Notes under the pieces: generated by a model | What the model saw: the letters and a program-made list of their open reading frames with translations, nothing else | The model's database searches: none | What the model was told of the DNA's origin: nothing | Assembly (NCBI GenBank): GCA_947259165.1 | Contig: CAMYKY010000010.1 | Location: 34,433 to 98,432 of the forward strand | Origin: an uncultured Acidobacteriota bacterium | Lineage (GTDB): Bacteria; Acidobacteriota; Vicinamibacteria; Marinacidobacterales; SMYC01 | Direction of reading: 5' to 3' | Length of the DNA stretch: 64,000 nt | Part shown: positions 7,523-49,281 of the stretch, piece after piece | How positions within the stretch are numbered: the first letter of the stretch is position 1 | Layout: each line of letters starts with the position of its first letter | Made by a program: the position numbers and the translations under genes

Positions 7523-7611
7523 CGTGCCCGTGTCCGCGTGCGTGCCCGTGCCCGATAAATCTTGGTCACGGGTTTTCCTGTGAGTGCTTTTCTTGGTCGG
7601 GCACGGGCACG
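7523..7611. repeat. hexamer-TIR element, copy A: (GTGCCC/GTGTCC)n left arm and (GGGCAC)2 right arm
   Basis: Left arm cgtgcccgtgtccgcgtgcgtgcccgtgcccg, a 44-nt AT-richer core, then right arm cgggcacgggcacg. It sits between the symporter stop and the fliA start. Confidence 0.7.
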
Positions 7612-7620
7612 AAAAGCCAG

Positions 7621-8841
7621 CTACGGCGGCGTCAATTCATGCTCAGCAGCCCCGACCCAGGTCGCGTTCACCAGCTGGCCTACTAGATTCGTCGACGAGC
7701 GCAGCATGTCCAGGGGACGTTCGACACCGAGCACGAGCGCCGCGCCTTCGATCGGAAGTCCTAGGGCGGCGAGAAGGATCGTCAAATTGACGAAGCTCGC
7801 CGCCGGAACGGGCGCTACCGCGAGCGAAGACAGCATCGCGGTCACGATCAAGCTCGTCAAGCCCTGGGCTCCCAATGAGGCGCCGTAGACTTGCGCAATG
7901 AACAACACCGAGATGGCTTGATAGATAGCACTGCCGTCCCGGCCAATCGCCGCACCCAAAGGCAGCACGAAGCTCGCGACTCGTGACGAGAGCCCCATAC
8001 TCTTTTCCATAGCCGCCATCGAGACGGGAAGGGCTGCGGCGGTCGAACAGGTCGCAAAGGTGATCAGAAGCGGCGGCTTCGCCGCGTCGAGGAAACGACC
8101 CACACTCTGCCGCGCCACCACCCGCAGCATCACTCCGTACACGACAACGATATGAACAACGAGCGCGAGCACGACGACACCGGCGTAAGCAGAAAGACTC
8201 CAGAGAATCGAGAGGCCCGATCGACCGACGACCGCAGCCATCAAACCGAAGACACCGAACGGTGCGAGCTGCAAGATCCAACCGGTGATCTTGACGAACA
8301 TCTCCGCAACGCTTCGCGAGAGATCAACGACAGGCTTGCGCTTATCAGCAGGGAGCGCACTCGCGGCAAGACCGACGAGAATCGAGACGAGCAAAACTTG
8401 AACGACGTTGCCCTCGACCGCCGCTCGGATTGGATTATCGGGAACGATACCAACGAGCGTGTCGACGAGAGACTCTCGCGGCGCATCCGGATCCACGTCT
8501 GGAACTTCCTGGCCTTCGAGAAGGCTCGCACGCGCAGCAGCCGACATCGTCGTTCCTGGGCTCAACAACGACCCGATCGAAATCCCGATGATCAGAGCGA
8601 GGAACAGACTGACGAGAATGAATCCGAACGCCCGCAGCCCCATCCGCCCCAACGCTGCCCGTCCTGGTAATCCGGCTATCGCCACGACGAGAGACGCCGC
8701 AACCAAAGGAACGATCACCATCCGAATGAGCTTGATGAACAGCGTCCCCAAGGGCTCGAGGATGGAGGCGGCTTCGCCGAAATACGCACCGACGAGGACA
8801 CCGGCAACGAGCCCAATCGCGACGCGGTTGTGAATCTTCAA
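7621..8841 (-). CDS. dicarboxylate/amino acid:cation (Na+/H+) symporter, DAACS family (GltP-like)
   Basis: Eight or more TM segments with characteristic DAACS motifs (PLVAASLVVAIAGL, VVDLSRSVAEMF, AIGRDGSAIYQAISVLFIAQVYG, MLRSSTNLVGQ). The start is placed at TTG 8841 (LKIHNRVAIG); the track ORF runs to ATG 8991. Confidence 0.8.
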   Translation of the reverse strand: MKIHNRVAIGLVAGVLVGAYFGEAASILEPLGTLFIKLIRMVIVPLVAASLVVAIAGLPGRAALGRMGLRAFGFILVSLFLALIIGISIGSLLSPGTTMSAAARASLLEGQEVPDVDPDAPRESLVDTLVGIVPDNPIRAAVEGNVVQVLLVSILVGLAASALPADKRKPVVDLSRSVAEMFVKITGWILQLAPFGVFGLMAAVVGRSGLSILWSLSAYAGVVVLALVVHIVVVYGVMLRVVARQSVGRFLDAAKPPLLITFATCSTAAALPVSMAAMEKSMGLSSRVASFVLPLGAAIGRDGSAIYQAISVLFIAQVYGASLGAQGLTSLIVTAMLSSLAVAPVPAASFVNLTILLAALGLPIEGAALVLGVERPLDMLRSSTNLVGQLVNATWVGAAEHELTPP

Positions 8842-9133
8842 ACTGGCCGGAGCGTAGCATGATCGGCATTTCGCCGTGAGGGCAGCTTCGACGGAGCCCG
8901 GACGATATCTCACTCCTTCGAAGAGGTCCGATGCGGACGATTCAGCATTCGGTTTCACCACGGAGTCACGGAGAGCACGACGCGAGGACAACCCTTTTCT
9001 CTATGATCCGCCGAGACTCCGCGGTGAAATCGGCGGGCCATTGGGGAGGCGAAATGCGCACTCCACGGGGTCAAGCAAACCGTTCTTTGCTTGGATCTTG
9101 CGCGAGTGCGGAGAAGTTGTTATCACCACTAAT

Positions 9134-12100
9134 ATGAAAGATTCGCCACTCGTCGCCCAGCTGAGCCGCATCGCGTCCGAGCGCATTCTCATCATCGACG
9201 GGGCGATGGGCACGATGATCCAAAGCTACAAGCTGGACGAAGACAGCTTCCGCGGTGACGCCTTTCGCGAGCACTCGATGCCGCTCAAAGGGGCCAACGA
9301 CCTACTCTGCTTGACGCAGCCCAGGATCATCGAGGAAATCCACCAGCGTTTTCTCGACGCGGGCGCCGACGTCATCGAGACGAACACATTCAATGGAACA
9401 TCGATCGCGATGGCGGACTACGGGCTGGAGTCTCAGGTCTATGAAATCAATCGTCAGGCCGCCGTGATCGCGCGTCGCGCCGCTGACGCAGCGACGCAGA
9501 AAACACCCGACCGACCTCGATTCGTCGCCGGCTCGATGGGGCCGACGAACAAGACGGGTTCTATCTCCCCCGATGTCACCAACCCCGCATTCCGCGGCAC
9601 GACCTTCGATGCGTTACGCGATGCGTACTACGAGCAGGTGCGGGGCCTCATCGACGGTGGCGTGGACATCCTTTTGCCGGAGACTGCTTTCGACAGCCTC
9701 AACATGAAAGCAGCGTTGTTCGCGATTCAAGATCTCTTCGAACAACGCGGCGTCATTTTGCCGGTTATCTCTTCTATGACGGTCGTCGACGAGAGCGGGC
9801 GCAACCTGTCAGGGCAAACCCCGGAAGCCTACTGGATCTCGGTCTCGCATGCGCCGTTACTCGCTGTCGGGATCAATTGCGCCCTCGGCCCCTCGACGAT
9901 GCGTCCCTATGTCGAAGAGCTCGCTTCGACGTCAAACGTGCTCGTAAGCTGCGCGCCAAACGCCGGCCTCCCCAACGCTTTTGGCGGCTACGACGAAACC
10001 CCGGAACAAATGGCGCAAACTCTCGGAGAGTTCGCCGCTGAAGGCTGGCTCAACTTCGCCGGAGGTTGCTGCGGCACTACCCCCGAACATATCGAAGCAA
10101 TCGCGGAAAGCGTGCGCCGATACACTCCACACACGCCTTCCCCGTCATCGAGCTTCACACAGCTTTCCGGGCTCGAGCCCCTGACGATCCGGCCCGATTC
10201 CAACTTCATCGTGATTGGCGAGCGAACCAACGTCACGGGCTCTCGCAAGTTTGCGCGTCTCGTCACATCCGGCGCGCTCGAAGATGCACTCGATGTCGCG
10301 AGGGATCAGGTCGAAGGCGGCGCCAATATCCTCGATGTGAACATGGACGAAGGTCTTCTCGACTCCGAGAAAGCAATGACGACCTTTCTCAATCTCGTCA
10401 CCACCGAGCCGGACATCGCCCGGCTTCCCATCATGGTGGACAGCTCCAAGTTCTCCGTAATCGAGGCCGGTCTGAAGTGCCTTCAGGGAAAGAGCATCGT
10501 GAACTCGATCAGCCTCAAAGAAGGCGAAAACGTCTTCACCGCGCAGGCTCGCAAGGTAAGGCAATACGGCGCCGCCGTCGTCGTCATGGCGTTCGATGAG
10601 GAAGGACAAGCGGCCACCACCGATCGCAAAGTGGAAATTTGCAAGCGCGCGTACAAGATTCTCACCGAACAGGTCGGCTTCGCACCACAGGACATCGTGT
10701 TCGATCCCAACGTCCTGACCGTCGCAACGGGCATGGATGAACACAATGATTACGCGTTGGCGTTCATCGACGCGACCAAGCGAATCAAGACAGAGTGCCC
10801 CGGCGCGAAAGTCTCCGGCGGCATTAGCAACTTGTCGTTCTCTTTTCGCGGCAATGACTACGTGCGCGAAGCGATGAACTCGTCGTTTCTTTACTACGCG
10901 ATCCGCGCCGGACTCGACATGGGCATCGTCAACGCCGGACAGCTCGCAGTCTATGACGACGTCGAGCCCGTCTTGCGCGAGCGAATCGAAGACGTCTTGT
11001 TCAACCGCAACTCCGACGCGACCGAAGCTCTGATCGGGTTCGCGGAGGAACAAAAGGGCCCTGGAATCAAGCGAGAGAAGGACGACGCGTGGCGCGAAGC
11101 AACGGTCGAACAGCGACTGTCGCATGCGCTCGTCCGGGGCATCGTTGACCATATCGTGGACGATTCCGAAGAGGCACGGACGAAATACGGCCGCCCATTG
11201 GCCGTTATCGAAGGCCCGCTCATGGATGGGATGAACATCGTGGGGGATCTCTTTGGGGCCGGCAAGATGTTCCTCCCTCAGGTGGTGAAGAGCGCACGGG
11301 TCATGAAAAAGGCCGTGTCCTATCTCGAGCCGTTCATGGAAGAAGAAAAACGCGCTTCGGGAAACACCAGCAGCAAGGCAAAGCTAGTCCTCGCGACCGT
11401 CAAAGGAGACGTTCACGATATCGGCAAAAATATCGTCGGGGTCGTTCTCGCATGCAATGGCTACGAGATTCACGATCTCGGCGTCATGGTCCCCGCCGAA
11501 AAAATCCTGGAAGCCGCGCGTAGCGAGAAAGCGGACTTCATCGGCCTCTCCGGTCTCATTACTCCGTCGCTCGATGAGATGGTACACGTCGCCTCCGAGA
11601 TGCAACGCCAGGGTCTCGAAGTACCTCTGCTAATCGGCGGCGCCACGACATCACGCAAACACACGGCGGTGAAGATTGCGCCGTGCTATCGACACGAAAC
11701 GATTCACGTGCTCGACGCTTCGCGCGCCGTCACCACGGTGAGCGAGCTGTTGAGCGGGGACGCTCGCGCGGATTTTGTCGCCAAAAACCGCGAGGACCAA
11801 GACGTGATGCGACGCGAATACGAGGAGCGCGAGCGAAAACTCCTTCCCTACGAAGCCGCGAAAAGCCAGTCGCTCGCGCTCGAGTGGTGCTCGCAGGACA
11901 TCGCAAAGCCCGATTTTCTCGGAGTCCGCGTTCTCGACTCGGTACCCCTTGCCGAGATCACGGACTACGTCGATTGGACGCCGTTTTTTCATGCCTGGGA
12001 GTTTCGTGGGCTCTACCCGGAGTTGCTCGACAAGCCTGACGCAGGTCCGGCCGCTCGCGAGCTCTTCGACAACGCCCAGAGTCTGGTTCAAGAGCTCATC

Positions 12101-12805
12101 GCGAACGAACAGCTCACGGCGCGAGCCGTCTACGGGTTCTTCCCGGCCAACCGCGACGGGGACGACATCATTATTTATACAGACGACAACCGCGACGTCG
12201 AACGGACACGCCTCCACACGCTTCGCCAGCAGCAGGAAAAACGCAATCAGAACCCCCATCTGGCTCTGGCCGATTTCGTGGCGCCGACGGGTCACGCGGA
12301 CTACATCGGCGCGTTTGTCGTCACTGCCGGAATCGGCACCGACGAGCTCGTCAAACACTACGAGAGCGACCACGATGATTACCACGCCATCATGGTCAAA
12401 GCTCTCGCGGATCGTTTCGCCGAAGCGCTCGCAGAGAAAATCCATGAGCAGGCGCGCCGCGACTCGGGGTTCGGCAAGGAGGAGAAACTCGAGAAGCAGG
12501 ATTTGATCCGCGAGCGCTATCGAGGTATTCGACCCGCACCCGGCTATCCTGCTTTGCCCGATCACAGCGAGAAGGCAACGTTGTTTGCGCTACTCGACGC
12601 GGAAAAAAACGTCGGTGTCACTCTGACCGAGAACTTTGCGATGCTTCCAGCCGCTTCAGTCAGCGGTTTGTACTTCAATCATCCTCGAGCGAAGTACTTC
12701 AGCGTTGGTAAGATCGGACGCGACCAGGCCGAGGACTACGCCGCACGGAAAAACGTGCCGCGCACCGAGATCGAACGCTGGATCCGATCGAACGTCGGCT
12801 ACTGA
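9134..12805 (+). CDS. metH: cobalamin-dependent methionine synthase MetH
   Basis: About 1224 aa with all four modules. Hcy-binding (GAMGTMIQ...GINCALGP...[11 protein letters not shown]). Pterin-binding ([10 protein letters not shown]). B12-binding ([25 protein letters not shown]...GLSGLIT). AdoMet-binding activation domain at the C-terminus. The ATG at 9134 ([10 protein letters not shown]) fits the conserved N-terminus. Confidence 0.95.
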
Positions 12806-12825
12806 GCTAATAACGGCTTTGACAC

Positions 12826-13016
12826 GGAGTCTCATTCGGCTATCGGCTATCGGCATCCGGTTGATGCTCGGTTGACGAGAGTCTTTTTTCCACACACCTG
12901 AGCTCGATAAACAATCTTGGCCTTCCCGAAGGCTTGCGCGCCGCGTCGAGGCGCAGTCGCTGGGGCCGGCAAATAAATCCGGACCGAGCAGTAACCGAAT
13001 GCCGATAGCCGAATGA
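12826..13016. mobile_element. MITE-like element with ~25-bp heptamer-repeat terminal inverted repeats (family 2, copy 1)
   Basis: Left TIR cattcggctatcggctatcggcatccggtt. Right TIR aaccgaatgccgatagccgaatgag, near-perfect reverse complement. The ~130-nt core (ctcgataaacaatc...gcgcgccgcgtcgaggcgcagtcg) is homologous to the copy at 29707..29873. It lies between the metH stop and a convergent lipoprotein gene. Confidence 0.75.
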
Positions 13017-13035
13017 GACTGAGCTGAAAAGGTTG

Positions 13036-13770
13036 TCACCAGAGTACAACGCAGCGGTGGAGCATCACGTCGCTCGCTGATTTCCCTCGGACCTGACCGA
13101 GAAAGTGGATCGGCTGCCAGTCGCGTAGACTCTGAAACTCGGGACGGGCGAGCCGACACTCCACGAAAGAAAGCTCGTAGTCAGTCGCGAGCAGAAGAGG
13201 GTCGTGGACGTAGGGGTTTTGTTCAACGAGCTTGAACCCGTCGGCAAAATCCCTCATGTTATGGGGTGCCACCGTTCCCGAGAATACCGCGAGCCGGCCT
13301 TTGTACTCTGCGTCGGCCTCGGCTTCGGAGTTCGGGAAAAGGTAGTCCGCGTAAAGCTCCGCCACGTTGACGTGCAGAGTCCTCCCTCGCCTCACGAGCT
13401 CGACCGCCCCCTCCCGCAACGCGCGGAGTGACATAGCGCTCGGTGCCTCTTCGAACGCCTTCACGAGTGACGCGAGCCGCGCGTGAGCCTCGGCGGCGTC
13501 CGACTCATCGAGCTCAGCGCGCAAGACGGCTGCGGCCTCGAGCTCGACGTCGGTTAGAAACGGCGGGATCGGAGGCGGCAGTCCTCGCGTGTCCGGCGCC
13601 GGTCGTTGGGTAAAGCCTTGCCGAAGCGGGTTACTCTCGATCGGAGAGCCGACAGGAGGCTCTTTCGCGTTCTCCGGTGCAGCCACGACCGGCGATGCCT
13701 CCGGCGCCGGTTCCTCGGGCCCACCACACGCGATCATCGCCCCACACAGCAACAGGATCGCCTGTCTCAT
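13036..13770 (-). CDS. putative lipoprotein / secreted protein of unknown function
   Basis: N-terminal signal peptide with a Cys-containing lipobox-like MRQAILLLCGAMIACGG, a Pro/Ala-rich linker, and a conserved-looking C-terminal domain. No recognisable family. Confidence 0.45.
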   Translation of the reverse strand: MRQAILLLCGAMIACGGPEEPAPEASPVVAAPENAKEPPVGSPIESNPLRQGFTQRPAPDTRGLPPPIPPFLTDVELEAAAVLRAELDESDAAEAHARLASLVKAFEEAPSAMSLRALREGAVELVRRGRTLHVNVAELYADYLFPNSEAEADAEYKGRLAVFSGTVAPHNMRDFADGFKLVEQNPYVHDPLLLATDYELSFVECRLARPEFQSLRDWQPIHFLGQVRGKSASDVMLHRCVVLW

Positions 13771-13949
13771 CATCGATTCTTTGCTCGCCACTCCGCGACG
13801 GCGCGGTAGCCGCCGCCGAGACTAGCACACTCGCGCGAGCATCCCCGACGACAGCAACGACTTTGACGGGATGGCCTTTGCGCCAAGACTGGCGCCAAAG
13901 GTTTTCGTTTTCAAATCGGTACCGTACAATTATCTTGGGGGAATTCTTC

Positions 13950-14375: not shown

Positions 14376-14421
14376 CGACGGAATCTCTTGTGGTAGTCTT
14401 CGGGCGGAGCGGAACGGAAAC

Positions 14422-14832: not shown

Positions 14833-15089
14833 ATTCGTCCGACACGTGGGCTCGAGCCGCACCCAGGCTCGAGCCAATGTGCAACTACCGATTGAGAAAC
14901 GCTCCAGCACAGCTCTTCGGGGCCTCCGACCGAGACCTTGACAACCTCGTTGCCTTCGCCCTAATCTCGCCCCGAAACGAGTGCGGTCGGGGTCCGGCGG
15001 GATGTTTCAAACTCAACGCCGTATTTACCTGCAAGCTTACGGACTGATCCGTGGCGCACGGCGCGAGCCTGGCGTCATTGGAGGGAGGT

Positions 15090-15533: not shown

Positions 15534-15562
15534 TCACGCCGACAGAGTCGGCGTATCAAGCA

Positions 15563-15592
15563 CCCCTCTCCCCCCGAATGGGGGGAGAGGCC
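15563..15592. terminator. perfect palindrome CCTCTCCCCCC-GAAT-GGGGGGAGAGG downstream of the BON/LysM gene
   Basis: 11-bp stem with a 4-nt loop, 30 nt after the stop. No T-tract follows on the plus strand. It belongs to the recurring CCTCTCCCCC/GGGGGAGAGG palindrome family (see also 15826..15891 and 60184..60229). Confidence 0.5.
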
Positions 15593-15825
15593 TGGGTGAG
15601 GGGGATGTACACGCGTTGCACCGTGCACCTGCACCCGTTGTACCCGTGCCCCCGATCTCGGACCCCATTGGGCAGAGCCCCAGACTGAGCAGCTGTGGTT
15701 CGCGATTCGAGTTCTTCGAATGCAGGCGTTGTGCCAGCGCGGATAGAGTCGATTTCTTTGGTTTTCAGCGTCATCACTCGCCTTCGAGCAACGCCCCCTA
15801 ACCCGATGGCGCTGCGCGCCATCGA

Positions 15826-15891
15826 CCTCTCCCCCCTTTTGGGGGAGAGATTAATCAAAATCAACAACCTCTCCCCCAAAAGGCGGAGAGG
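15826..15891 (-). terminator. tandem CCTCTCCCCC-N4-GGGGGAGAGG hairpins; glpK rho-independent terminator candidate
   Basis: Two hairpins (cctctcccccc-tttt-gggggagag and cctctccccc-aaaa-ggcggagagg) separated by attaatcaaaatcaacaa. On the minus strand the distal hairpin is followed by TTGTTGATTTTGATTAAT, a U-rich tract, 50-115 nt after the glpK stop. Confidence 0.55.
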
Positions 15892-15940
15892 GCCTCTTGG
15901 TTAGCCTCTTCCGTCACAGTGCTCACCGACACGCCACACC

Positions 15941-18786: not shown

Positions 18787-18974
18787 AGTTTTGAACAGCC
18801 TCGGGTCCGAGACGACCCCCTCGGCCCGACTAGCCTCCCCTGAGGTCTCGTCCTTCTCACCGAGACTTCCGGGGAGGCCCTCCCTCCTGTAGCGGGCGTC
18901 GTCTCCTCGAGGCGCCCGCGCTTGTTTCGGACAACTCCTTCGGCTTCATGTTCCATCGTGCACGGCGATGCAGT

Positions 18975-19090
18975 CAAAGGCAAAGAGAGACGGGGATAGG
19001 AGGGGATGTGGGGATAAGACAAGCTCTGTGCAACGCCCCATCTCCAAACTTCGGATCATGTCCATCCCCTAATCCCCTTTGCCTTTGACG
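18975..19090. repeat. long imperfect inverted repeat upstream of the sigma-54 activator gene
   Basis: gtcaaaggcaaagagagacggggataggaggggatg ... catccatcccctaatcccctttgcctttgac. The arms are ~33 nt with a ~45-nt spacer, about 90 nt upstream of the ATG at 19179. Confidence 0.5.
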
Positions 19091-20689: not shown

Positions 20690-23600
20690 GTGATCAAATC
20701 AACTTCGGTACGGCGTGAACGTGAGGTCGCGGCGCGTATTCGCGAGCTCGGACGGATGCTCGCCGACCCGAATGCGACGCTGCAAACCCATGAGCTAGGC
20801 TCCGACGTGCTACTCGCCCTTCTCGACGGCGAGCGCCGGTATCGACAGCTAATGGAGCACAGTGGCGCGTTCATCTGCAGCCACGATCTCGGCGGGGTTC
20901 TACTCTCGGTCAATCAGTCGGGGGCGAAGAGCCTCGACTACCAACAAGACGAGATGGTCGGGCGAAATCTCAACGAGTTCATCGATATACAGCAGCAAGA
21001 TCAATTCGACGAATACTTGCGATTGGTCGCAATCGAGCCCTCGGTCAGCGGCGTGATGAGCGTCCGACGACGCGACGGTGAGAGTCGCACCTGGGCTTAT
21101 CACAACTCCCGATTCCAGGAGCCCGGTCAAGAGCCTTGCGTTCTCGGACACGCACAGGACATCACCGAGATGAAGCAGCTCGAGGAGACGCTGAAGCTCA
21201 CCCAGTTTTCAGTCGACAGAGCCGCCGACTCCGTCTTTTGGATCGCCGCCGACGGCCAGCTCCGCTACGTGAACGACGCCGCCTGCGACTATCTCGGATA
21301 CACGCGGGACGAGCTTCTCTCGATCTCGATTTACGATGTTGATATAACCCTCGAGCGCGCCGAATGGCCGGCACATTGGGAGCAAGTCAAGCAGCTCGAG
21401 CGTTTCACCACCGAGACGATCTACCGCACAAAGGACGGCCGCACCTTCCCGGTCGAGGTCACTGTCAACTTCCTGAGCTTCCGTGGACTGGAGTATCACT
21501 GCGTCTTCGCGCGCGAAATCTCGGAGAGAAAAGAAGCCGAGGACGCCATCATCGCAACGACCGCGCGGCTCGAAGGACTGCTCGAGAATCTGCAAGCTGG
21601 CATCTTGTTCGAAGACGACAATCGGCGCGTCGTTCTCGCAAACCAGACTCTGTGCCAAATCCTCGACATTCCCGTCCCTCCGAGCGCGCTCGCAGGCGCG
21701 GACTCGCGAACGTTGCTCGACCAGTGCAAGGACTTGTTCCCGGCCCCTGCGGCGTTTTTGGAGCGAGTCGAGAGCATCTTGCTGTCGCATACTTTGGTCA
21801 GGAACGAAGAGCTCACGCTCGACGACGGGCGCGTCCTCGCAAGGGACTTCATTCCGATCGTCACCCAGAACTACCGCGCTCACCTTTGGCAATATCGCGA
21901 TGTGACCGAGCGCAAGCGCGCCGAATCCGAGATTCTCAACGCCAAACTTGAGGCGGAGAAAGCGAACGCTGCCAAGAGCAGTTTTCTAGCGATGATGAGT
22001 CACGAGCTCAGAACGCCTCTCAACGCCATTTTGGGCATGACAGAGCTCTCTCTGGACACGAAACTGAACAAAGAGCAACACGAGTTCTTACAAACCATTC
22101 AAACCAACTCGGAGAACCTCCTGCGGCTCATCGACGACGTTCTCGACCTTTCCAAGATCGAGGCGAATCGCATGGATCTGGAACAGATCCCGTTTGATCC
22201 GCGCGAGCTCGCAGAGGAAGTTGCCGAGTCGTTGAATGTTCGCGCAGCTTCCAGAGATGTCGAGCTCGTCCTCGATATCGATCCTCACCTGCCGATGGAA
22301 ATCGTTGGCGATCCGAAACGGGTACGTCAGGTGCTCGTCAACTTGGTCGGCAACGCAGTGAAGTTCACCGAACAAGGCTCGGTAGAGCTATGCGTGGAAG
22401 TCGAGGACTGGAAACCGGGAGACCGTGTCGATCTGGTTTTCGTCGTAACCGACACCGGTATCGGGATTCCTCGGGACAAACAGGACAAGCTGTTCTCACG
22501 GTTCTATCAAGCCGAGAGCTCGACGACCCGCAAGTTCGGTGGCACCGGACTCGGCCTCAACATTTCACGCTCGCTCGTGGACCTCATGGGCGGGCGGATC
22601 GACTTCACGAGTAAAGCAGGCGAGGGCAGCACGTTCCGCGTCAACATTTCAACAGAGTCGCCCACCGATACGGAACCGAACTCGGCGCGCCATCGCGCTC
22701 AACTCGCGGAGGCAAAAGCGAAGGTTTTGCTGTGGGTGCCACAGGAGAAACGTCGCCGCACCCTCGCCAGGCTATTCATCGCATGGGGACTCGAGGTCGA
22801 GCTCGTGAGCTCGCTCGATGAGCTCGACGCCAAGCTCGCCGCGGCGGGCACGAGGCAAACTCTCACGGTATTAGAGCATCGCCCCAACCAACTGGATCTG
22901 GGCGCGCTGCGCAAGCTGCGCCAGCCTCCATTGCGCGAGCTTCTGCTATTGACCTCGATCGGCGCGAGCACATCGGCGGTCCTCACCGAAACGTGCCCTC
23001 ACCTCGTCGTCAAGCCGACGCGTCAGCAACGGCTCGCGGAGACCATCGCCCGCGCCCTCGGGCTGCGCGCCCAGGCGACGGCCGCTTCCGTCAGTGACCC
23101 CGCTCCGAGCCCAGCGGTGGCAGAGGGGAGCGCGCCGTTTCGCATCCTGCTCGTGGAAGACAACCCGGACAATCAGAAACTCGCGGCCCGCATCCTTCAA
23201 GGCGCTGGCGCAAGAGTCGATACCGCCGAGAATGGGCGGGAAGCGGTCACGATGGCCGAGCACACACTCTACGACTTGATCGTCATGGATCTCATGATGC
23301 CCGTGATGGATGGCTTCCAGGCGACCGGGCAAATCCGAGCCGGCGAAGCCGAGCCGAACCGGGTCCCGATCGTGGCTCTCACCGCGCACGCCACCGAGGG
23401 TTTCCGGGATCGGTGCTTGAAGGCCGGCATGGACGACTACCTGTCCAAGCCGTTCAAGAAGGAGCGTTTCCTCGCCGTCGTCGACCAATGGGTCGATCGT
23501 CGTCCTGTCATTCTCGTGACCGATGACGCCCCGGAGAACCGACTCATCGTGAAACGCTTCTTAATGCTCGGCGGCGACTACCGGCTCTTGTTCGCCGCCA

Positions 23601-24317: not shown

Positions 24318-26246
24318 GTGCTCTCACGAAAAAGATCGTGCCCGTGCCCGCGTGCGTGCCCGTGCCCGAAAAGCGAGCCTTCCGGATTTAGTCGGGGACG
24401 GGGACGGGGACGGGAACGGGAACGGGAACGGGAACGGGAACGGGGCACCCGAACCACGGACATTCTTCGCGGAGTGTTTGGGTATCGCACTTTTCGCGGC
24501 CAACAGGAGTCGGTCATCAACCGCATCGTCTCCGGTGGGAACGCTCTGGTGTTGATGCCCACCGGGGGCGGCAAAAGTCTGTGCTATCAGATCCCAGCGA
24601 TTGCCCGCGACGGGGTCGGAATCATCATTTCGCCGCTCATCGCGCTGATGCAGGATCAGGTGGCGGCTCTCACGGAGGCTGGAGTCCGGGCGGCGTTCGT
24701 GAATTCCAGCCTCGAGCGCCATGTGGCAAGTCGCGTCGAGGACGACATGGTCGCGGGTCGATACGATCTGGTGTACGTCGCGCCGGAGCGCCTCGCCACC
24801 GACTCGTTCGTCAAACGATTGGACGATACCCGCTTGGCGTTGTTCGCCATCGATGAAGCGCACTGCGTGAGCCAGTGGGGCCACGACTTTCGGCCCGAGT
24901 ACCGCAAGCTCGACTTGTTGCACCAACGCTATCCCAACGTCCCGAGAATCGCACTCACCGCAACCGCTGACGCCCCAACTCGGGGTGAGATTCTGACGCA
25001 CCTCGCGTTGTCCGACTCCGACGTGTTCGTCGCCGGCTTCGATCGTCCCAACTTGCGCTACGAGGTCGTACCCAAAGCGAACGGCCGCCAACAACTGTTT
25101 CGATTCATCCGGAGCCGCCATGAGGGGGAGAGTGGCATCGTCTACTGCATGAGTCGCAAGAAGGTCGAGCAAACCACGGAAGTGCTGATAGGCGAGGGGG
25201 TGCCGGCGCTCCCCTACCACGCCGGCTTGGACAAGTCAGTGCGCCAGTCCCATCAAAGGCGGTTCAAGGACGAGCCCGGGATCGTCATCGTCGCCACCAT
25301 CGCCTTCGGTATGGGAATCGACAAGCCGGATGTACGATTCGTCGCCCATCTCGACCTGCCCAAGAGCCTCGAGGCTTACTATCAGGAGACCGGTCGGGCC
25401 GGACGCGACGGGCTGCCCTCGGACGCATGGATGACCTACGGCTATGGAGACGCCGTGTTTATCCGACAAATGGTCGAGCGTTCCGACGCGCCTGCGGAGC
25501 GCAAGCGTCTCGAACAGCTCAAGTTGAACTCATTGCTCGGCTACTGCGAGAGCGCGGAATGTCGACGCGCAATCTTGCTTCGTTACTTCGGTGAAGAGCA
25601 CGCGGGAACGTGCGGCAACTGCGATACCTGCACAAATCCCGTCGAATCGTTCGATGGCACCACGCAAGCCCGCAAAGCGCTATCGAACGTCTACCGCACC
25701 GGCCAACGCTTTGGTGCTGCGTATCTTGCCGACATCCTCGTGGGCGCGTCCGACCCGCGGATCGAGCGCAATGGACACGCGCGCATCTCGACGTTCGGCA
25801 TTGGCGACGAGTTCGACCGGAACGGGTGGATGAGCGTGTACCGCCAGCTCGTAGCAGCCGCACTCCTCTTAGTAGAGCCGGAGCACGGAGGCCTGTCGCT
25901 CTCCGATCGAGCGGCGCCTCTGCTGAAAGGCGACGATACGTTCCGCTTGCGTCGCGACCCGACGCCGGTCAAGGGCAAGTCGCAACCACGCACCGGTTCA
26001 ACCGTCGATACAGTGCTGAGCTCATCCGCAGACCAGAAGCTGTTCGAAGCGCTTCGACAAAAACGCCTCGAGCTCGCGAAATCACAGCGCGTTCCGCCCT
26101 ACGTGATTTTCCACGATCGCACGCTCCTCGAGATGGCCCGCGTCCGTCCCCGCTCGCTGTCCGCCCTAGCCGACATCACCGGCGTGGGTGCCACGAAGCT
26201 GGACAAGTACGGGGATACGTTTCTTGAGTTGCTGAAGGATGAGTGA
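24318..26246 (+). CDS. recQ: ATP-dependent DNA helicase RecQ
   Basis: DEAH helicase motifs ([30 protein letters not shown]). Helicase-C and the Zn-binding RQC ([20 protein letters not shown]). C-terminal HRDC domain. The only in-frame start upstream of the conserved FGYRTFRG block is GTG 24318, so the repeat element is part of the ORF or the start is non-canonical. Confidence 0.9.
24337..24447. repeat. hexamer-TIR element, copy B, lying inside the 5' end of the recQ reading frame
   Basis: Left arm cgtgcccgtgcccgcgtgcgtgcccgtgcccg. 24-nt spacer. Right arm (cggggac)3(cgggaac)4cggggcac. The recQ frame reads it as [11 protein letters not shown]...[16 protein letters not shown]. Confidence 0.75.
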
Positions 26247-26275
26247 ATCCGACACCGAACTCCCAAGCTGAGATC

Positions 26276-26416
26276 GTTCCCGTTCCCGTTCCCGATTGAT
26301 CTTGCTCCTGGCCACTTTTCGGTTCGAAACCGAGCTATTTCGAGCCGCAGGCGGCGACCGAACGAGTTCGATTCAGCATACGTCGGGAACGGGAACGGGG
26401 ACGGGAACGGGGCACC
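26276..26416. repeat. hexamer-TIR element, copy C: (GTTCCC)3 ... (GGGAAC)n
   Basis: Left gttcccgttcccgttcccg. A 90-nt core containing ggttcgaaaccgag. Right cgggaacgggaacggggacgggaacggggcac. It lies 30 nt after the recQ stop and 26 nt before the selenoprotein-candidate ATG. Confidence 0.8.
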
Positions 26417-29706: not shown

Positions 29707-29873
29707 TGTATACGGCATTCGGGCGAAAGCTCGTTTGAAGAGCGCTTGCCCGCACACCGGAGCCTCGATAAACGATCGTAGAAGGTGTGCGCGCAGCATC
29801 GAGACGCAGTCGTGTTGACTCGATGAGGAATCCGAAACCAGACTCGAACCGTATGCCGTATGCCGTTTTTACC
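29707..29873. mobile_element. MITE-like element, family 2 copy 2, between the vWA gene stop and the ATPase start
   Basis: Right end cgaaccgtatgccgtatgccg (heptamer CCGTATG x2) abuts the vWA stop. Left end tatacggcattcggg is a partial inverse. The core ctcgataaacgatc...gcgcgcagcatcgagacgcagtcg is homologous to 12826..13016. Confidence 0.7.
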
Positions 29874-31389
29874 GCACGACGCGTTCGTGGCTGCGGCGCA
29901 TGCGCAGCGCCCGTTGGATCTTTCCCGGGATGAAGCGTTTGAGGAACAAGCGGGAGGGGACGTTTTCGTAGGCGAGGCCGAGCTTCACATCCTTGCGGCC
30001 GCCCATCCCGAGCTCGTCGACCCGAAACTCATAGCGTCCGAGTCGAACCTTACTGCCGTAACGCAGCTCGAACTCCTGGGATTTCACTCCGTAGGTCTTG
30101 CAATCAATCGTGGGACCGGTGAGTTTCTTATTGAGCTTGTCATTGTGCAGCAGATGGACTTTCGCCCGCAGAAAATCGAGTGGACCAAACTTGGCCCGCT
30201 CGGCGGGTGCACTGGTGACGAGTCTTTCGACGAGCGCCTCTTCCATGTCGCCTGCGACATACTCTAGATTGAGCGCGTAGATCTGCTCGTCTTTCGTCCC
30301 CTCCTTGGAGAGGAGCTCGACACGTTCGCGCAGTTGTTCGAGCGGTAGCTCGATGAGCCCTCGAGCGATCTCGTCGATGCCATCGATGTGAAAGCCCGTC
30401 GGTGGAAGCTCTGTGGAGCGCTCCTTGGCGGTCAACATCGCCACAGCATGCTTCGACGATTCGACCAGCGAGAGTCCTTTCCAACTCCAACGAGGGCCAT
30501 CGGGTGAAACCCGGCGCAGCCGGTCAACTGCCATTTGCAGTGGACTGCCGGTCTTCAATTCGACGATCTCGCGATCTCCGGAGCCCGGAAAAGATCGGAC
30601 GCCAATACCTATGAAGATCGCGAGCATGGCCGTCAGAACGCCTGCAATCCCGAACTCGACTCTTGACGCCGGAGGCGTGGCGATCCGAGTGACGATAGGC
30701 TCGATCTCTTCGAGTCCCTCATCCTTCTCGATGCGGAAAATGAAGCGGCGCAGCAGCATGCCGTCATCGTCGAAAAACTCGGCAATTCCCTGAGCGTAGT
30801 CGCTCGAGGCGATCGACCCGTTGGCCGCGACGACCATTCGCTGAATCAATTCGTAGTCGACTTCTTCGCCGATGAGGATTGCGTAGAGAGGCAGTCCGAG
30901 ACTCTCGAGCAAGCGAACCGTTCGGGAGCCGGCTTCCTGTCTCAAGTCCGCGCCTTTCGCGACCGATTGGTCCTGCCAGTCACGCGGCGACGGGTCGATC
31001 ATCCCGTCGGTGATCAGCACGATTTTGAATTCGGTGCCCTCGGGATACTCCGCAGCCACGTCGCGCGCGGCTTCGAACGCAAAATAGAAGTCAGTCCACT
31101 TCCCCGCATTGCGGTAGTGCTGGGGAGCGTCGACGTAAACCTCGTTACGGCCGCCGAAGAGGATGAGTCGGTAGGGCTGGCCTTTCAGGAAGGAATAGAT
31201 CTTCTCGATGGCTTCACGTCGCTGGGTGTCTGGATCGAGCGGAGGAAGGCTCGCCGAGTTGTCCAACAGGAACAGGATGACCGATTCGCCGGCCTGCGGC
31301 TGGAGGAGCGGAGTTTTCGTTTCCTCCGCGCTCGAGAGCACCGAGGACAAAACGGCCGCGCCCACAAAGAGCGTTCTGACGGTCTTCAT
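29869..31389 (-). CDS. membrane-anchored von Willebrand factor A (vWA) domain protein
   Basis: Sec signal peptide (MKTVRTLFVGAAVLSSVLSSA). vWA with MIDAS (LLDNSASL ... LITDG). One TM helix (FGIAGVLTAMLAIFIGIGV). About 250-aa cytoplasmic C-terminal domain of unknown function. Start taken at ATG 31389; the track ORF extends to 31467. Confidence 0.75.
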   Translation of the reverse strand: MKTVRTLFVGAAVLSSVLSSAEETKTPLLQPQAGESVILFLLDNSASLPPLDPDTQRREAIEKIYSFLKGQPYRLILFGGRNEVYVDAPQHYRNAGKWTDFYFAFEAARDVAAEYPEGTEFKIVLITDGMIDPSPRDWQDQSVAKGADLRQEAGSRTVRLLESLGLPLYAILIGEEVDYELIQRMVVAANGSIASSDYAQGIAEFFDDDGMLLRRFIFRIEKDEGLEEIEPIVTRIATPPASRVEFGIAGVLTAMLAIFIGIGVRSFPGSGDREIVELKTGSPLQMAVDRLRRVSPDGPRWSWKGLSLVESSKHAVAMLTAKERSTELPPTGFHIDGIDEIARGLIELPLEQLRERVELLSKEGTKDEQIYALNLEYVAGDMEEALVERLVTSAPAERAKFGPLDFLRAKVHLLHNDKLNKKLTGPTIDCKTYGVKSQEFELRYGSKVRLGRYEFRVDELGMGGRKDVKLGLAYENVPSRLFLKRFIPGKIQRALRMRRSHERVVR

Positions 31390-31514
31390 ATTGGGGTTCG
31401 GTGGACTACTTTGATTATAGAGGGTGAAACGCTTTCTAGCCACGCCTATCGGAAGCTCCGAACCCAACGAGTCCTACGATCGACGAGCCCCAACTCCACC
31501 GAACGCGTTAGTGG

Positions 31515-32462: not shown

Positions 32463-32561
32463 AGGCTTTTCACCACGCAGGCACGCAGCTCACGGAGGGT
32501 GCACGGAGAAATTCGTGTTTCCCTCCGCGGTCTCCGTGCCTCCGTGGTGAAAAAACGGAGT

Positions 32562-37051: not shown

Positions 37052-37145
37052 TCCAATGTTCCACCACGGGGAGAATCACCGAGGTGAGTCCGTCCGTTCT
37101 CCGGATCCCCTCCGTGCGTCCGTCGCAACCCGTATGCCGTATGCC
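37052..37145. repeat. hairpin cluster plus solo heptamer motif (CCGTATG)2CCG downstream of the gdh stop
   Basis: ccacggggagaatcaccgaggtgagtccgtccgttctccggatcccctccgtg forms nested inverted repeats. cccgtatgccgtatgccgtgag matches the family-2 TIR. It is a likely terminator region for the minus-strand gdh gene. Confidence 0.5.
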
Positions 37146-37154
37146 GTGAGCCGC

Positions 37155-41471: not shown

Positions 41472-41660
41472 GGTGTGACTGGTATCTCCGGATCGAAACT
41501 CGGGTGCAATCCCTTAGTGTAGACCGGTCGCGGGCACGATGCCACGACTAGCGAGACTTTCGACAATGCCCAGGTCAGCTCCACGACCTTCTAACGTTAA
41601 TTTTGAACCGAAGGTTGGACCTGTCCGGCTCGGTTGTGCTCCCGCCGAAGAGAGTTCTTC

Positions 41661-41791
41661 GTTCCCGTTCCCGTTCCCGTTCTCGACTAAGAATGTCCAG
41701 ACCCGTCGGCGAGCGGAGCTCGCCGCGATCAGTCCGTGGTCACGTGAACATCTTTAATCGGGAACGGGAACGGGAACGGGAACGGGAAACG
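41661..41791. repeat. hexamer-TIR element, copy D: (GTTCCC)3-4 ... (GGGAAC)5
   Basis: gttcccgttcccgttcccgttctcg, then a 73-nt core with internal hairpin cggcgagcggagctcgccg, then cgggaacgggaacgggaacgggaacgggaaacg. It is intergenic, upstream of the divergent gdh start. Confidence 0.8.
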
Positions 41792-41961: not shown

Positions 41962-42759
41962 TCAGTTGTTGGCGTGTTGTATGTGGACCGCTCGGTACGG
42001 CGAAACGAGGTCGACCACGACACCCTCGATCCGCGCCTCGGCGCCGACGGCCGGAGCGCTCAAACCCGGCGATAACGCGAAGCACAAAGGGACGCTTCCG
42101 CGAACGAGAAGACTCATTTCGCACCCGGTTGCCGGTGTCACAACCATCCCCGTCGCATGAATCTCATCGTCGATACGTAACTCAGAGGCAACGAGTCCGC
42201 CACCACCGTCCACACCCCGAGCTCGTAGCGGCAGCCCCAGATGGTCTCCCAGCAACGAGGACAACTCTGACGGCGGCAAGCGTTCGACGAGTGCAGGCTC
42301 GTTGTCGACTCGAGTTTCGTTGGTGACGATCACGAGCGTGTCTTTGACTCTTACCGCCACGACACAATCGAGCTCGGGCGGGCAGCTTTCGATTCCAAAA
42401 AAGAGCCCGCGCACCCGAGCATCGTCCCCATCGGAGCCGCTCGATCCCCTGTTGCTGTCATCGTCGTTGCTGTCATCGTCGTCGCTGTCATCGTCGTTGC
42501 TGTCATCGTCGTCGCTGTCATCGTCGTCGCTGTCATCGTCGTCGCCGTCATCATCCGGCGAATCGCCGCTAGCATCGTCGCCATCGCTATGCGCTCGCGA
42601 GCTCGCCAGTGCTACACCGGCGGCATCACCACTCACGATCGAGGGCGCAGTCGCGCTGACGCCGTCGTCACCGCACCCCACGAAAACGAGCGCAGCGAAC
42701 ACCGCGGCAACTACCATCGCAATCCATTTCATTTGCCGTGTCATTTCCATTTCGGACAT
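41962..42759 (-). CDS. lipoprotein with poly-acidic (DDDDSDDDDSN)n repeat region
   Basis: Lipobox LVFVGCG. About 45 residues of Asp/Ser repeats are encoded by 15-bp tandem DNA repeats (gttgctgtcatcgtc, ~7 copies, 42447..42555). A C-terminal globular domain follows. Confidence 0.6.
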   Translation of the reverse strand: MSEMEMTRQMKWIAMVVAAVFAALVFVGCGDDGVSATAPSIVSGDAAGVALASSRAHSDGDDASGDSPDDDGDDDDSDDDDSDDDDSNDDDSDDDDSNDDDSNRGSSGSDGDDARVRGLFFGIESCPPELDCVVAVRVKDTLVIVTNETRVDNEPALVERLPPSELSSLLGDHLGLPLRARGVDGGGGLVASELRIDDEIHATGMVVTPATGCEMSLLVRGSVPLCFALSPGLSAPAVGAEARIEGVVVDLVSPYRAVHIQHANN

Positions 42760-43020
42760 GTCTCCTCGGGTCCGGTACGGAGCCCAAACCGACACCCGTA
42801 TGAACCCAGGCTACGGACGCCGGCGACGCACTAGGTCAATCCCTCTATGCGGCAGAGTCATTGTGCGTCGACCACGCCGAACGCGCGATGATCCGCGGCA
42901 CGCTTTTGGGGTGAGGTTGCTAACGCCCGGCCGGTGAGGAGCGTCACGGACACGAACGAAAAGGCCGAGGCAGTCTTGTTAAACTAGCGGCGTGACGCAC
43001 CGCGATCTCTAGACAATCTT

Positions 43021-47481: not shown

Positions 47482-47503
47482 TAGAATTTCAAGGAGATAG
47501 CTG

Positions 47504-47827
47504 ATGGAACATACATACGACGAGCTCAAGAAGAAAACCGTCGCCGAGCTCCGCGAGGTCGCGGACGGAATGGACCACGAGAAGGTCCCTGGCTTCAAGA
47601 CGCTCCACAAAGAGGACCTCGTCAAACTCCTTTGTAACGCTTTGGGGATCGAGGCCCATGAGCACCACACCGTCGTAGGAGTCGACAAGGCAAAAATCAA
47701 AGCGAAGATCCAGGTTCTCAAGGTAGCGCGGGCGGCCGCGATCGAAGCACATGACGCCAAACAGCTCAAGTGGACGCGCCTCAACATCAAACGTCTCAAG
47801 CACAAGATCCGTCAGGCAACCGTCTAG
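47504..47827 (+). CDS. small basic protein with Rho-N/SAP-like N-terminal helix motif
   Basis: 107 aa. The N-terminus (ELKKKTVAELREVADGMD..FKTLHKEDLVKLL) resembles the Rho_N/SAP DNA/RNA-binding motif. A GGAG precedes the ATG. Confidence 0.4.
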   Translation: MEHTYDELKKKTVAELREVADGMDHEKVPGFKTLHKEDLVKLLCNALGIEAHEHHTVVGVDKAKIKAKIQVLKVARAAAIEAHDAKQLKWTRLNIKRLKHKIRQATV

Positions 47828-47869
47828 CCAAGCACGCAAGCTCGCGCGTTCAGCGTTCGGTATTCCGTA

Positions 47870-49069
47870 TTGAACATGGACACCACGGATCTAGAAGGGA
47901 TTTGGGAGGCACATGCTCGCTACGATCCCCTGTGGGCAATCCTTTCGGACCCTGCGAAGAAAAATCGCGGATGGGAGATCGACCGCTTCTTCGCCTCGGG
48001 GCAGCGAGAAGTTCGATTCCTGCTTCGTGATCTGGAGGTGGCAGGAATTGACGTCCTGCGACGAGACGTACTCGACTTCGGCTGCGGTATCGGCCGGCTG
48101 ACGCAAGCGTTATCACTTCACTTCGAACACGTGGTCGGCGTCGACATATCGCCCACGATGATCGAGCTCGCGGAGGAGCTCAACTCGAGCGGGCCGAATC
48201 CTCATCGTGTTCGTTTCATACGAAACCCAAGCGACGATCTTGCGGTGCTGAGCACGGAGGCGTACGATTTCGTCTACACGAACATCGTTTTGCAGCACAT
48301 TCCGCCGGCGCTCATGAAAAGCTACCTTCGTGAATTCCTTCGAGTCTTGCGGACGGGTGGCGTGCTCGTCTTCCAGCTGCCGTCCCACCCCCGCCCCAAC
48401 GCCGAGCTCACGGTTCGAGCCATGCCCGACGAGGCCTACCGGGCAGAGCTTCGCGTGGACGAATGGCCGCGTGTCGTCGAACCGTCGACTCGAGTCGGAC
48501 TCGCGGTTCAGGTCGTCAATGCCAGCTCTCACGCGTGGCATCCAAACGCGCTCGGTCAGGTCAACCTGGGAAACCATTGGATCGCGCCAGATGGCACCAT
48601 GGAGAGGCAGGACGACGCACGCGCCGGACTTCCCAGAACCGTCAATCCCGGGGAGCACGCGGAAATTCTCATCGGAGTGACAGCGCCCGACCAAGAGGGA
48701 TCGTATCTCTGTGAGCTCGACCTCGTGCACGAGACGATTAGCTGGTTCAAAGATCGCGGCTCGAAAAGTTGTCAGATTCCTATCGAAGTCGCGGTGAACG
48801 CGACTCAGCCGTCGGGACCCATCGAGCCCTCGGCGGCGGCGGTCGAGGCGACGAACCGCTGGACCGATGCATGGAGTGCCGCACAAAGACACCTACCCAC
48901 CCTATCGCCCGCGCTCGAGCCAAAGCCCTTCCCGATGTTCGGGATCCCTCGAGACGAGGTTCTCGATTATCTCGCACGCAACGACGCCACGGTTTTGTCC
49001 GTAACCGAGGACGGCCACGCGGGATGGGATTGGGTCGGCTACCGCTATACCCTCCGCAAAACGGTCTGA
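47870..49069 (+). CDS. class I SAM-dependent methyltransferase with ~200-aa C-terminal beta-rich domain
   Basis: Motif I VLDFGCGIGRLT, post-I DISPTMI and a motif II region. The C-terminal half has no assignable family. Confidence 0.65.
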   Translation: MNMDTTDLEGIWEAHARYDPLWAILSDPAKKNRGWEIDRFFASGQREVRFLLRDLEVAGIDVLRRDVLDFGCGIGRLTQALSLHFEHVVGVDISPTMIELAEELNSSGPNPHRVRFIRNPSDDLAVLSTEAYDFVYTNIVLQHIPPALMKSYLREFLRVLRTGGVLVFQLPSHPRPNAELTVRAMPDEAYRAELRVDEWPRVVEPSTRVGLAVQVVNASSHAWHPNALGQVNLGNHWIAPDGTMERQDDARAGLPRTVNPGEHAEILIGVTAPDQEGSYLCELDLVHETISWFKDRGSKSCQIPIEVAVNATQPSGPIEPSAAAVEATNRWTDAWSAAQRHLPTLSPALEPKPFPMFGIPRDEVLDYLARNDATVLSVTEDGHAGWDWVGYRYTLRKTV

Positions 49070-49128
49070 CGAGCACACCACGAAGACACGGAGCCGCAGC
49101 GCGGAAAGTCCGCAACCCACTGCTTTTT

Positions 49129-49281
49129 CAACGCAAAGGCGCAAAGTCGCGGAGACGCAAAGGTCGTCGAGTATGAGCTTCTGCAGACGATGATTTGACA
49201 CTTGTGAAAGAGACATGCGCCGGAACACGTCCGCCGCAAGGCGCTCACTTTGCGCCTTTGCGCCGTTGCGCCTTTGCGTTG
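49129..49281. mobile_element. MITE-like element with 16-bp perfect TIR built from GCGCAAAG repeats (family 3)
   Basis: Left arm caacgcaaaggcgcaaagtcgcggagacgcaaaggtcg. Right arm cactttgcgcctttgcgccgttgcgcctttgcgttg. The terminal 16 nt are exact reverse complements and the octamer GCGCAAAG is repeated 3x per arm. It overlaps the 5' end of a truncated gene. Confidence 0.7.

Follow-up and report, generated by a model that had tools for sequence, protein, structure and literature searches.

Palindromes whose arms are built from tandem units of 6–9 nt were found in the intergenic DNA of an uncultured Acidobacteriota bacterium (contig CAMYKY010000010.1). The source genome is represented throughout by one 64-kb stretch of ~60% GC, here called the window, and its relatives by pieces of ~20 kb that were gathered through RecQ and MetH homologues. 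RecQ identity to the window is 86% in L205, the closest locus, 81% in L082 and 73% in L206, and MetH identity is 89% in L250. Genes in the window were called from open reading frames (ORFs) and the GC content of third codon positions (GC3). Hairpin folding was computed for single-stranded DNA with dinucleotide shuffles as the null, arm complementarity was scored by gapped alignment, and arm periodicity was tested against shuffles.

Palindromes in the window

Eleven intergenic palindromes, each 78–195 nt long, and one solo arm are present. With 1,290 nt in all, these elements account for 2% of the window's sequence and ~21% of the part that is intergenic. Among intergenic regions of at least 40 nt they occur in 8 of 15 between tandem genes, 2 of 6 between convergent genes and 1 of 8 between divergent genes, mostly close behind a stop codon. 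An initial annotation of this DNA had described three unrelated families of elements resembling MITEs (miniature inverted-repeat transposable elements). The elements that it named are present at, or within a few bases of, the positions it gave; three others, E4a, E4b and E5, had been missed.

Family 1 has hexameric units. E1a (family 1A, 7522–7612; z −5.7) has the left arm CGTGCCCGTGTCCGCGTGCGTGCCCGTGCCCGA and the right arm CGGGCACGGGCACG, with a period of 6 (p 0.0005). It is flanked by two minus-strand genes and lies 6 nt from the stop of the 7621–8991 gene. E1b (24336–24446) is chimeric. It pairs the 33-nt family 1A arm of the GTGCCC type, on the left, with a right arm made up of (GGGGAC)3(GGGAAC)5. 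Because the two arms use different units, they are only ~76% complementary (25/33); unit number also differs between them (5 vs 9). The right arm adjoins the conserved N-terminal coding sequence of recQ. The start codon used by relatives (TTG in L205 and L082) is lost next to this G-rich arm, and E1b is entirely open in the recQ frame from a GTG at 24318 (24318–24480). The length of a RecQ database protein (590 aa) would place the start at GTG 24474, at the cost of conserved residues.

The other two family 1 palindromes are of type 1B. E1c (26275–26413; z −4.3) has (GTTCCC)3 and (GGGAAC)n arms around an unrelated 88-nt loop. It begins 29 nt past the recQ stop and ends 28 nt ahead of the next start codon. 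E1d (41660–41790; z −8.4) has (GTTCCC)4 and (GGGAAC)5 arms with inner GAYTAA/TTARTC boxes on each side. A degenerate family 1-like C-rich arm is tentatively placed at 15610–15660 (TGCACCG/GTGCCCCC, with a CCCGATC end and no clear partner).

Family 2 consists of two palindromes and the solo arm. E2a (12826–13020) lies between convergent genes, beginning 21 nt past the metH stop, and pairs four CATTCGG/CTATCGG heptamers with three CCGAATG/CCGATAG heptamers around a core of ~110 nt. E2b (29707–29873), which runs into the stop of the minus-strand gene at 29869–31467, has the right arm (CCGTATG)2.6, and its core and the E2a core are homologous. The solo (CCGTATG)2.6 arm at 37130–37147 matches this right arm exactly over 19 nt and stands without a partner arm.

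The remaining palindromes belong to families 3 and 4 or are composite. E3 (family 3, 49128–49282; z −3.05) has the head TTCAAC followed by the units ACGCAAAG/GCGCAAAG/TCGCGGAG/ACGCAAAG, and begins 59 nt past the stop of the 47870–49069 gene. E4a (family 4, 32467–32553; z −7.5) has the head TTTTCACC and the units CACGCAGG/CACGCAGCT/CACGGAGGG, and occupies the 99-nt intergenic region of two convergent genes. E4b (family 4, 8953–9030; z −3.95), with the head TTTCACC and CACGGAG units, lies in the divergent intergenic region between an SDF transporter gene and metH. E5 (18973–19090; z −4.1) is composite, its outer arms being (AAAGGC)2 and its inner arms (GGGGATN)3, and follows a conserved block with two hairpins that is described below.

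Several other features were noted in the window. E3 lies just upstream of a putative nitrous-oxide reductase cluster (~49600–57400), recognised by eye, which includes a cytochrome c, a NosZ-like protein, a large NosR/NosD-like fusion and ABC NosF/NosY-like proteins. A separate hairpin family resembling repetitive extragenic palindromic (REP) sequences has the form CCTCTCCCCC, N4, GGGGGAGAGG with a stem of ~10 bp. Three copies (~15563–15590, 15826–15850 and 15870–15895) share one convergent intergenic region and one copy lies in another, at 60184–60203. Within the minus-strand gene at 41962–42795, a coding tandem repeat (42454–42552) has the 15-nt unit GCTGTCATCGTCGTC in 6.6 copies and encodes an Asp/Ser-rich DDDSDDDDSN run in a protein that looks secreted.

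Folding, periodicity and chance expectation

Every element folds as a long hairpin, with z scores of −2.8 to −8.4 against the shuffles. The arms are mutually reverse-complementary on gapped alignment, as the initial annotation had claimed: 15/15 in E1a, 20/21 in E1c, 29/31 in E1d, 27/30 in E2a, 12/13 in E2b and 30/35 in E3, with E1b weaker. A periodicity of 6–8 nt is significant in all family 1 arms (p ≤ 0.0065), in E3 (p ≤ 0.001) and in one arm each of E2a and E2b (p = 0.003), and is marginal in E5. The periodicity of E4a and E4b (CACGSAG units) is seen by eye only, because unit length varies; the ungapped test is not significant.

Eighty unrelated bacterial RecQ loci (1.45 Mb; RecQ at most 59% identical among the matches listed) served as chance controls. 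A strict detector of periodic-arm hairpins found one case in these 1.45 Mb and at least three in the 64-kb window. The sole control case, L004 5669–5769 from Stenotrophomonas nitritireducens, has (CGGGACC)n and (GGTCCCC)n arms. Its G-rich arm is 5', opposite to family 1, and it fits the published repeat arrays of Xanthomonadaceae. Palindromes with periodic arms are real and exceed chance.

Sequence conservation of the arms

The arms are conserved sequences of 25–35 nt with an internal periodicity of 6–9 nt, in which variant units stand in a fixed order. Family 1A arms have in common the 33-mer CGTGCCCG(T/A)GCCCG(C/T)GTGCGTGCCCGTGCCCGA, whose run is interrupted at a set position by a GYGTGC unit. 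The left arms of E1a and E1b match at 35/37 positions, and the left arm of E1b matches that of the orthologous L082 element at 31/33. A family 1 arm is identical (33/33) in L082 (60% GC) and L166 (43% GC). L166 is called Chlamydiota-like from one named homologue, a ComEC closest to a Parachlamydiaceae protein; its ComEC gene stands next to a UhpC-like transporter gene. The E3 arm is matched at 31/34 positions in L251, 28/34 in L083 and 22/24 in L166.

Independent slippage cannot yield such ordered variant units; the arms are copies that go back to common ancestors. Judged by their sequences, the arms are specific ordered sequences and not the free, microsatellite-like repeats for which they had first been taken.

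Conservation also extends to short boxes at the ends of the arrays. The loopward ends of family 1 arrays are GAYTAA in one arm and TTARTC in the opposite arm, and the corresponding box of families 3 and 4 is TTNAAC/TTCACC. Families 3 and 4 both use the unit nCGCrrAG and both have a T-rich head whose last bases are AAC or ACC, and a composite palindrome in L236 has both family 3 and family 4 array types on each arm. These two families belong to one superfamily. The dispersed palindromic families of the initial annotation stand, but not all of the families are unrelated.

The loops behave differently from the arms. Those of families 1, 3, 4 and 5 have no homologue in any fetched sequence. E2a and E2b are the exception, with cores ~80% identical across ~75 nt.

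Gain and loss at orthologous sites

Orthologous intergenic regions were compared between the window and its relatives. Upstream of recQ, where the window has E1b, the L082 element has almost the same left arm but another right arm, and its flanks cannot be aligned; the 88-nt region of L205 has no element. Downstream of recQ, E1c occupies a 195-nt intergenic region in the window; the region in L082 is 42 nt long and empty. Downstream of metH the window has E2a, L251 an intact family 3 element and L252 a decayed one; in L250 the genes overlap and nothing is present. Upstream of metH the window has E4b, L251 has a family 1 element and L250 has nothing. Downstream of gdh, where the window has the solo CCGTATG arm, the intergenic region of L082 is 33 nt long and the arm is absent. 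No such element was found in the 21 kb of L206.

One further site follows a gene that encodes 368 aa. Here the window has E5, L082 has an (GGCAGGAA)n hairpin with other short tandem repeats, L252 has a (CTAYCCG)3 hairpin and L206 has nothing. A non-coding block of ~105 nt lies downstream of this gene in all four genomes (window 18795–18900, L082 4134–4235, L206 3466–3571, L252 ~21575–21665). It is 92% identical where RecQ is only 73–81% identical, and it forms two hairpins, the L206 copy having a T-run at its end. The block has no Rfam match and may be either a conserved terminator or a structured RNA. Since this double-hairpin block is kept upstream in all four genomes, the elements at this site are additions downstream of an existing structure.

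Orthologous regions that are empty, or that carry a different family, show gain and loss of the elements at permissive sites just downstream of genes.

Occurrence in metagenomes, other phyla and viral contigs

Metagenomes were scanned with the family 1 query GTBCCCGTBCCCGAYTAA, and a match with at least three hexamers and the box was counted as a clear member. Many matches are due to chance. At least 19 clear members are found among the matches listed, 16 of which have a G-rich partner array 19–106 nt downstream. The C-rich arm of these pairs is always 5' and the G-rich arm 3'. Two family 1 elements are at times present on one metagenomic contig of 3–5 kb. Three loci of 42–43% GC (L090, L110 and L166) have several families side by side amid housekeeping genes and without a transposase; these include GTGCCC, RCRCAAAG, CGCNGAG and AAGATC. 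Among the metagenome loci listed, families 2–5 gave two matches, both family 3-like, in L110 and L166. The same arms are found in several independent assemblies from NCBI, ENA and JGI. The shared architecture noted in the initial annotation is real, and it extends to more families and to other phyla.

Viral and plasmid sequences were also searched. The family 1 arm has no match in the IMG/VR viral scan or in the plasmid BLAST. The family 3 arm is present in 43 viral contigs, where ~28 matches are expected by chance for a 16-mer (an estimate). Roughly 30 of the viral contigs have at least three family 3 units with the head box, and their arrays are mostly solo. One prophage-like contig (L220 1–12149, IMG/VR, 64% GC) encodes an integrase, a ParB-like protein and a sigma factor, and contains ten family 3 arrays in 12 kb, again mostly solo. 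Five of them are near-identical (TTNAAC GCAAAGACGCCAAGGGGCAAAGACGCAAAG) and lie 10–20 nt ahead of apparent start codons. An association of family 3 arrays with gene starts in the viral contigs is suggestive by eye and was rejected, as the distance from array to next ORF start is that of random positions.

A different hairpin was noted in L083 (16358–16426). It is a perfect 31-bp stem with A6 and T6 flanks and contains CGGGGACAGG, which fits the motif GGGGWSAS that Di Nocera et al. (2013, PMC3733652) reported for inverted repeats on either side of RAYT-like 'TIRYT' genes. RAYTs are REP-associated tyrosine transposases.

Identity of the elements

Because the elements often follow stop codons, they were compared with intrinsic terminators. 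A terminator scan of the window called no main stem, and terminator-like counts equal the shuffle expectation. Only an inner mini-hairpin of E1a was called, on the strand opposite the flanking genes. The stems are 15–45 bp and the loops 20–110 nt, and no 3' T-tails are present at the window elements. Searching the whole window against Rfam 15 gave no match at the gathering score; E2a has a chance-level match only (E = 0.76). The asymmetry of RNA folding between strands, taken as a sign of transcription direction, was uninformative, with three cases for and three against. G3 tracts number 3–9 in the G-arms of family 1, 3 in E5 and 0–1 in families 2, 3 and 4; these are sequence counts, and G-quadruplex folding is only potential.

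Like MITEs, the elements have terminal inverted repeats around a short non-coding core. No target-site duplication was seen, either as a recurrent direct repeat in the flanks of 23 family 1 palindromes or at the window elements. The arms are direct tandem arrays that are not self-complementary and lack a GTAG tag, which separates them from REP units. The elements resemble REP doublets forming hairpins (REPINs), being extragenic inverted doublets with a long hairpin, a variable spacer, high density (11 per 64 kb) and no target duplication.

No RAYT gene (HUH Y1) is present in the window or the fetched loci. The relatives do contain insertion sequences (ISs). In two of them ISs interrupt the SDF transporter gene that lies upstream of metH (L251 1436–8774; L252 4180–9792). 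L251 has two identical IS3-family copies and an IS66-family element, and L252 has an ISAzo13-like and an IS4-like element.

Other identities were tried and rejected. The ends of family 3 are GTTRRRY-like, as in integron attC sites; this identity was rejected because the flanking genes are core genes of either orientation and neither an integrase nor a cassette array is present. Nothing supports a CRISPR, tRNA-linked or riboswitch reading.

Discussion

In our judgement there is about an even chance that the elements are REPIN/MITE-like non-autonomous mobile palindromes of several arm families. This reading is favoured because the arms are ordered and conserved while the loops are unrelated, because several families reside together and their abundance is lineage-specific, and because different families occupy the same site in different relatives, old copies decay, no target is duplicated and identical arms are found across phyla. 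A common mechanism of mobilisation or generation, as first suggested, is plausible.

An enzyme whose gene lies elsewhere in the genome would copy or move the elements in trans, probably in the form of single-stranded hairpins, and the iterated sub-repeats would serve it as several binding sites side by side. The leading candidate would be a RAYT/TIRYT-like HUH transposase: such proteins work on single-stranded hairpins and leave the target unduplicated, and a 'TIRYT' group specific to Acidobacteria, which has inverted-repeat families of its own, has been described (PMC3733652). After insertion, replication slippage would lengthen or shorten the arrays, as in the unequal arms of E1b, and templated repair inside the palindrome would keep the arms roughly complementary. 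The periodicity of the arm ends thus probably reflects iterated recognition sites that slippage has altered further. Side effects on the host, such as stabilisation of mRNA 3' ends, termination or a family 1 G-quadruplex, may occur and would not be the reason that the elements exist.

Several observations weigh against mobility. The evidence from the source genome spans 64 kb only. No mobilising gene is present in the window, in ~100 kb of relatives or in the Chlamydiota-like loci. A trans-acting transposase with matching ends, which the initial annotation had proposed to look for, was thus not found in these sequences, and the ends of the IS3, IS66, ISAzo13 and IS4-like elements in the relatives are unrelated to the palindromes. 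Between assemblies 99.93% identical no differences occur inside the elements; no fresh insertion was caught, and no variation in repeat number was seen between these assemblies. Insertion boundaries are not exactly definable, as the flanks of the relatives are too diverged. The family 1 copies of one genome have no loops in common, unlike a recent MITE burst. Finally, the density of mostly solo arrays in the prophage-like contig L220 suggests a regulatory role rather than pure selfishness.

Comparison with MITEs gives a mixed picture. Like the bacterial MITEs Correia/NEMIS, ERIC, Nezha and the Tn3-derived miniature elements (TIMEs), the palindromes are 80–200 nt long with terminal inverted repeats, intergenic, and polymorphic for presence or absence, and the two family 2 copies have a homologous core. 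Unlike MITEs, they lack a target-site duplication and have periodic arms of variable length; no matching autonomous IS was found in the window or the fetched relatives, and in the 64 kb the copies of families 1, 3 and 4 have only their arms in common. The term MITE-like fits the dispersed palindromes and their presence/absence differences, but a reading as classical MITE copies is not supported, given the arm-only kinship of the family 1 copies, the missing duplication and the lack of a cognate transposase in the window and in ~100 kb of relatives.

REPINs provide a second comparison. REP and REPIN elements owe their mobility to RAYT transposases, as described by Bertels & Rainey (2011, PMC3116915) and by Di Nocera et al. 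(2013, PMC3733652). From Acidobacteria, the latter study reports RAYT-like 'TIRYT' genes that have inverted-repeat families of their own. Like REPINs, the palindromes are extragenic and abundant, lie mostly after genes, belong to several families per genome and lack target duplications. They likewise form inverted doublets that give long hairpins with less conserved spacers, with singlets as remnants. However, a REP unit is a short imperfect palindrome tagged GTAG or CGTC, whereas the arms here are non-self-complementary direct arrays without GTAG. REPINs are also reported to be inherited vertically within lineages, unlike arms common to different phyla, and no RAYT gene is tied to the present elements in the window and the fetched loci.

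The closest precedent for the architecture is found in Xanthomonas, whose genomes each have 70–75 convergent inverted (GGGAATC)n pairs able to form stem-loops (Rehm et al. 2015, PLoS One, PMC4692102). These G-quadruplex-forming arrays are often convergent pairs ~28 nt past ORFs, and a G-rich heptamer simple sequence repeat (SSR), GGGGA(C/T)T, is known from Nostoc (PMC4692102). The two-array architecture behind an ORF was reported there in passing, without a mechanism (PMC4692102). Like the SSR pairs of Xanthomonas and Nostoc, the present arrays are intergenic tandem 6–7-mers with a G3 tract, and GGGAAC is one base off GGGAATC. The likeness to the Xanthomonas pairs extends to arrays of 2–26 units close behind the upstream ORF and to unit number and sequence that vary between related species. 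That work concerned one G-quadruplex-forming unit type treated as an SSR, whereas several families that are not G-rich (CCGWATG, nCGCrrAG) coexist here in one genome. Ordered arms conserved across phyla, the head boxes GAYTAA and TTNAAC, and clear gain and loss at orthologous sites also set the present elements apart.

The initial annotation was aware of no description of the architecture; a partial precedent thus exists. Literature searches found no description of this architecture in several non-G-rich families of one genome, nor of ordered conserved arms, head boxes or identical arms across Acidobacteriota, Chlamydiota-like and prophage-like contigs, and searches for the repeat strings returned nothing.

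Short direct repeats are familiar from other settings. The short tandemly repeated repetitive (STRR) heptamers of cyanobacteria are short direct repeats in non-coding DNA. In subterminal transposon arrays and in the iterons of HUH Rep origins, direct repeats of 5–9 nt provide multiple binding sites next to a hairpin. The analogy with both is purely architectural, as no replication or transposition protein is tied to the arrays described here.

A broader form of the mobile reading is offered tentatively. The families might form a cross-phylum superfamily in which a short head box (TTARTC or TTNAAC/TTCACC) joined to an ordered 6–9-nt array is exchanged among Acidobacteriota, Chlamydiota-like bacteria and prophages, with an enzyme of its own that recognises iterated sub-repeats. 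The modules may be used head-in, as in family 1, head-out, as in families 3 and 4, or singly. Recognition of hairpin-adjacent sub-repeats by their enzyme would be akin to the way in which iterons are read by a transposase or HUH nuclease.

The main rival reading, which we regard as rather unlikely, is that the elements are functional host signals that do not move. Periodic arrays, single or in inverted pairs, would be selected in place and would act as a G-quadruplex, an i-motif or a long hairpin that stops transcription, stabilises 3' ends or binds a conserved protein. The modules would consist of a TTNAAC/TTARTC head and a purine-rich array, and prophages of the same hosts would adopt them. 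The position of most elements just downstream of genes fits a host signal, as do the G3 tracts in the family 1 G-arms, which recall the G-quadruplex-forming (GGGAATC)n arrays of Xanthomonas, and the left arm of E1b, which is kept at the same L082 site between unalignable flanks. Many of the ten near-identical arrays in the prophage-like contig are followed, by eye, by a ribosome binding site and ATG; array-to-start distances are nevertheless those of random positions. Low-GC family 3 copies are flanked by an A-tract and a T-tract, as in bidirectional terminators, and many metagenomic family 1 loops hold a small GC hairpin with T5–7. The window elements, however, have no such tails and escape the terminator scan, families 2, 3 and 4 have no G-tracts, and a conserved hairpin block with a T-run end in L206 already precedes E5 and its counterparts. 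The sites of the closest relatives are empty or hold different families. Function alone also fails to explain the 33/33 identity across phyla, which includes the variant units. A role at the level of the host is possible for some copies in some contexts.

Generation in place without mobility is improbable as the main explanation. Ordinary hairpins at 3' ends would grow by slippage of 6–9-mers and template switching would copy the expansion to the other arm, so that any hairpin of long standing would come to have tandem-repeat arms and a common architecture would reflect a common mutational process. Slippage is consistent with unit numbers that vary from 2 to 9 between arms and copies, with the variant units within arrays and with variants that occur in both arms, such as TAAG in the family 3 element of L166. 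Non-palindromic intergenic tandem repeats are also present in relatives, for example (ACTAATC)4 and (CTCTGCGTC)3.8 in L082, and the outer flanks of metagenomic family 1 copies run on as other C-rich tandem units. Against it stand the identical ordered variant units at unrelated loci and in other phyla (33/33, 31/34, 35/37), the homologous cores of E2a and E2b at two loci, the lack of any hairpin at several sites in the closest relatives, the constant lengths in near-identical assemblies and an indication that the arms fall into a few families, each with many copies scattered in a genome. In-place slippage probably acts only as a secondary modifier.

Ordinary rho-independent terminators, chance inverted repeats with coincidental repetition, or assembly artefacts are very improbable: the elements do sit after stop codons, and the minimal form in L128 is textbook-like ((GTGCCC)2GAT, an 8-nt loop, ATC(GGGCAC)2, then GTTTTTT), but the long stems and large loops without T-tails, the uncalled main stems, the strong enrichment over the control loci and the same arms in independently made assemblies all argue otherwise. 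The initial annotation had named chance repetition in terminators as the outcome that would undo its proposal, and the scan and the controls point the other way. Pure in-place slippage and ordinary terminators are largely excluded.

If the elements are indeed mobile palindromes, then palindromes with periodic ends would be a general, horizontally spreading part of intergenic DNA in poorly studied phyla. They would offer a way into the mechanism behind the heptamer and hexamer arrays, so far unexplained, of Xanthomonas and cyanobacteria, and would point to a mobilising enzyme that recognises iterated sites. They would bear on the annotation of gene starts and terminators in metagenome-assembled genomes, as one element displaced the recQ start codon, and could be used as markers to type strains and to follow gene flow from one phylum to another.

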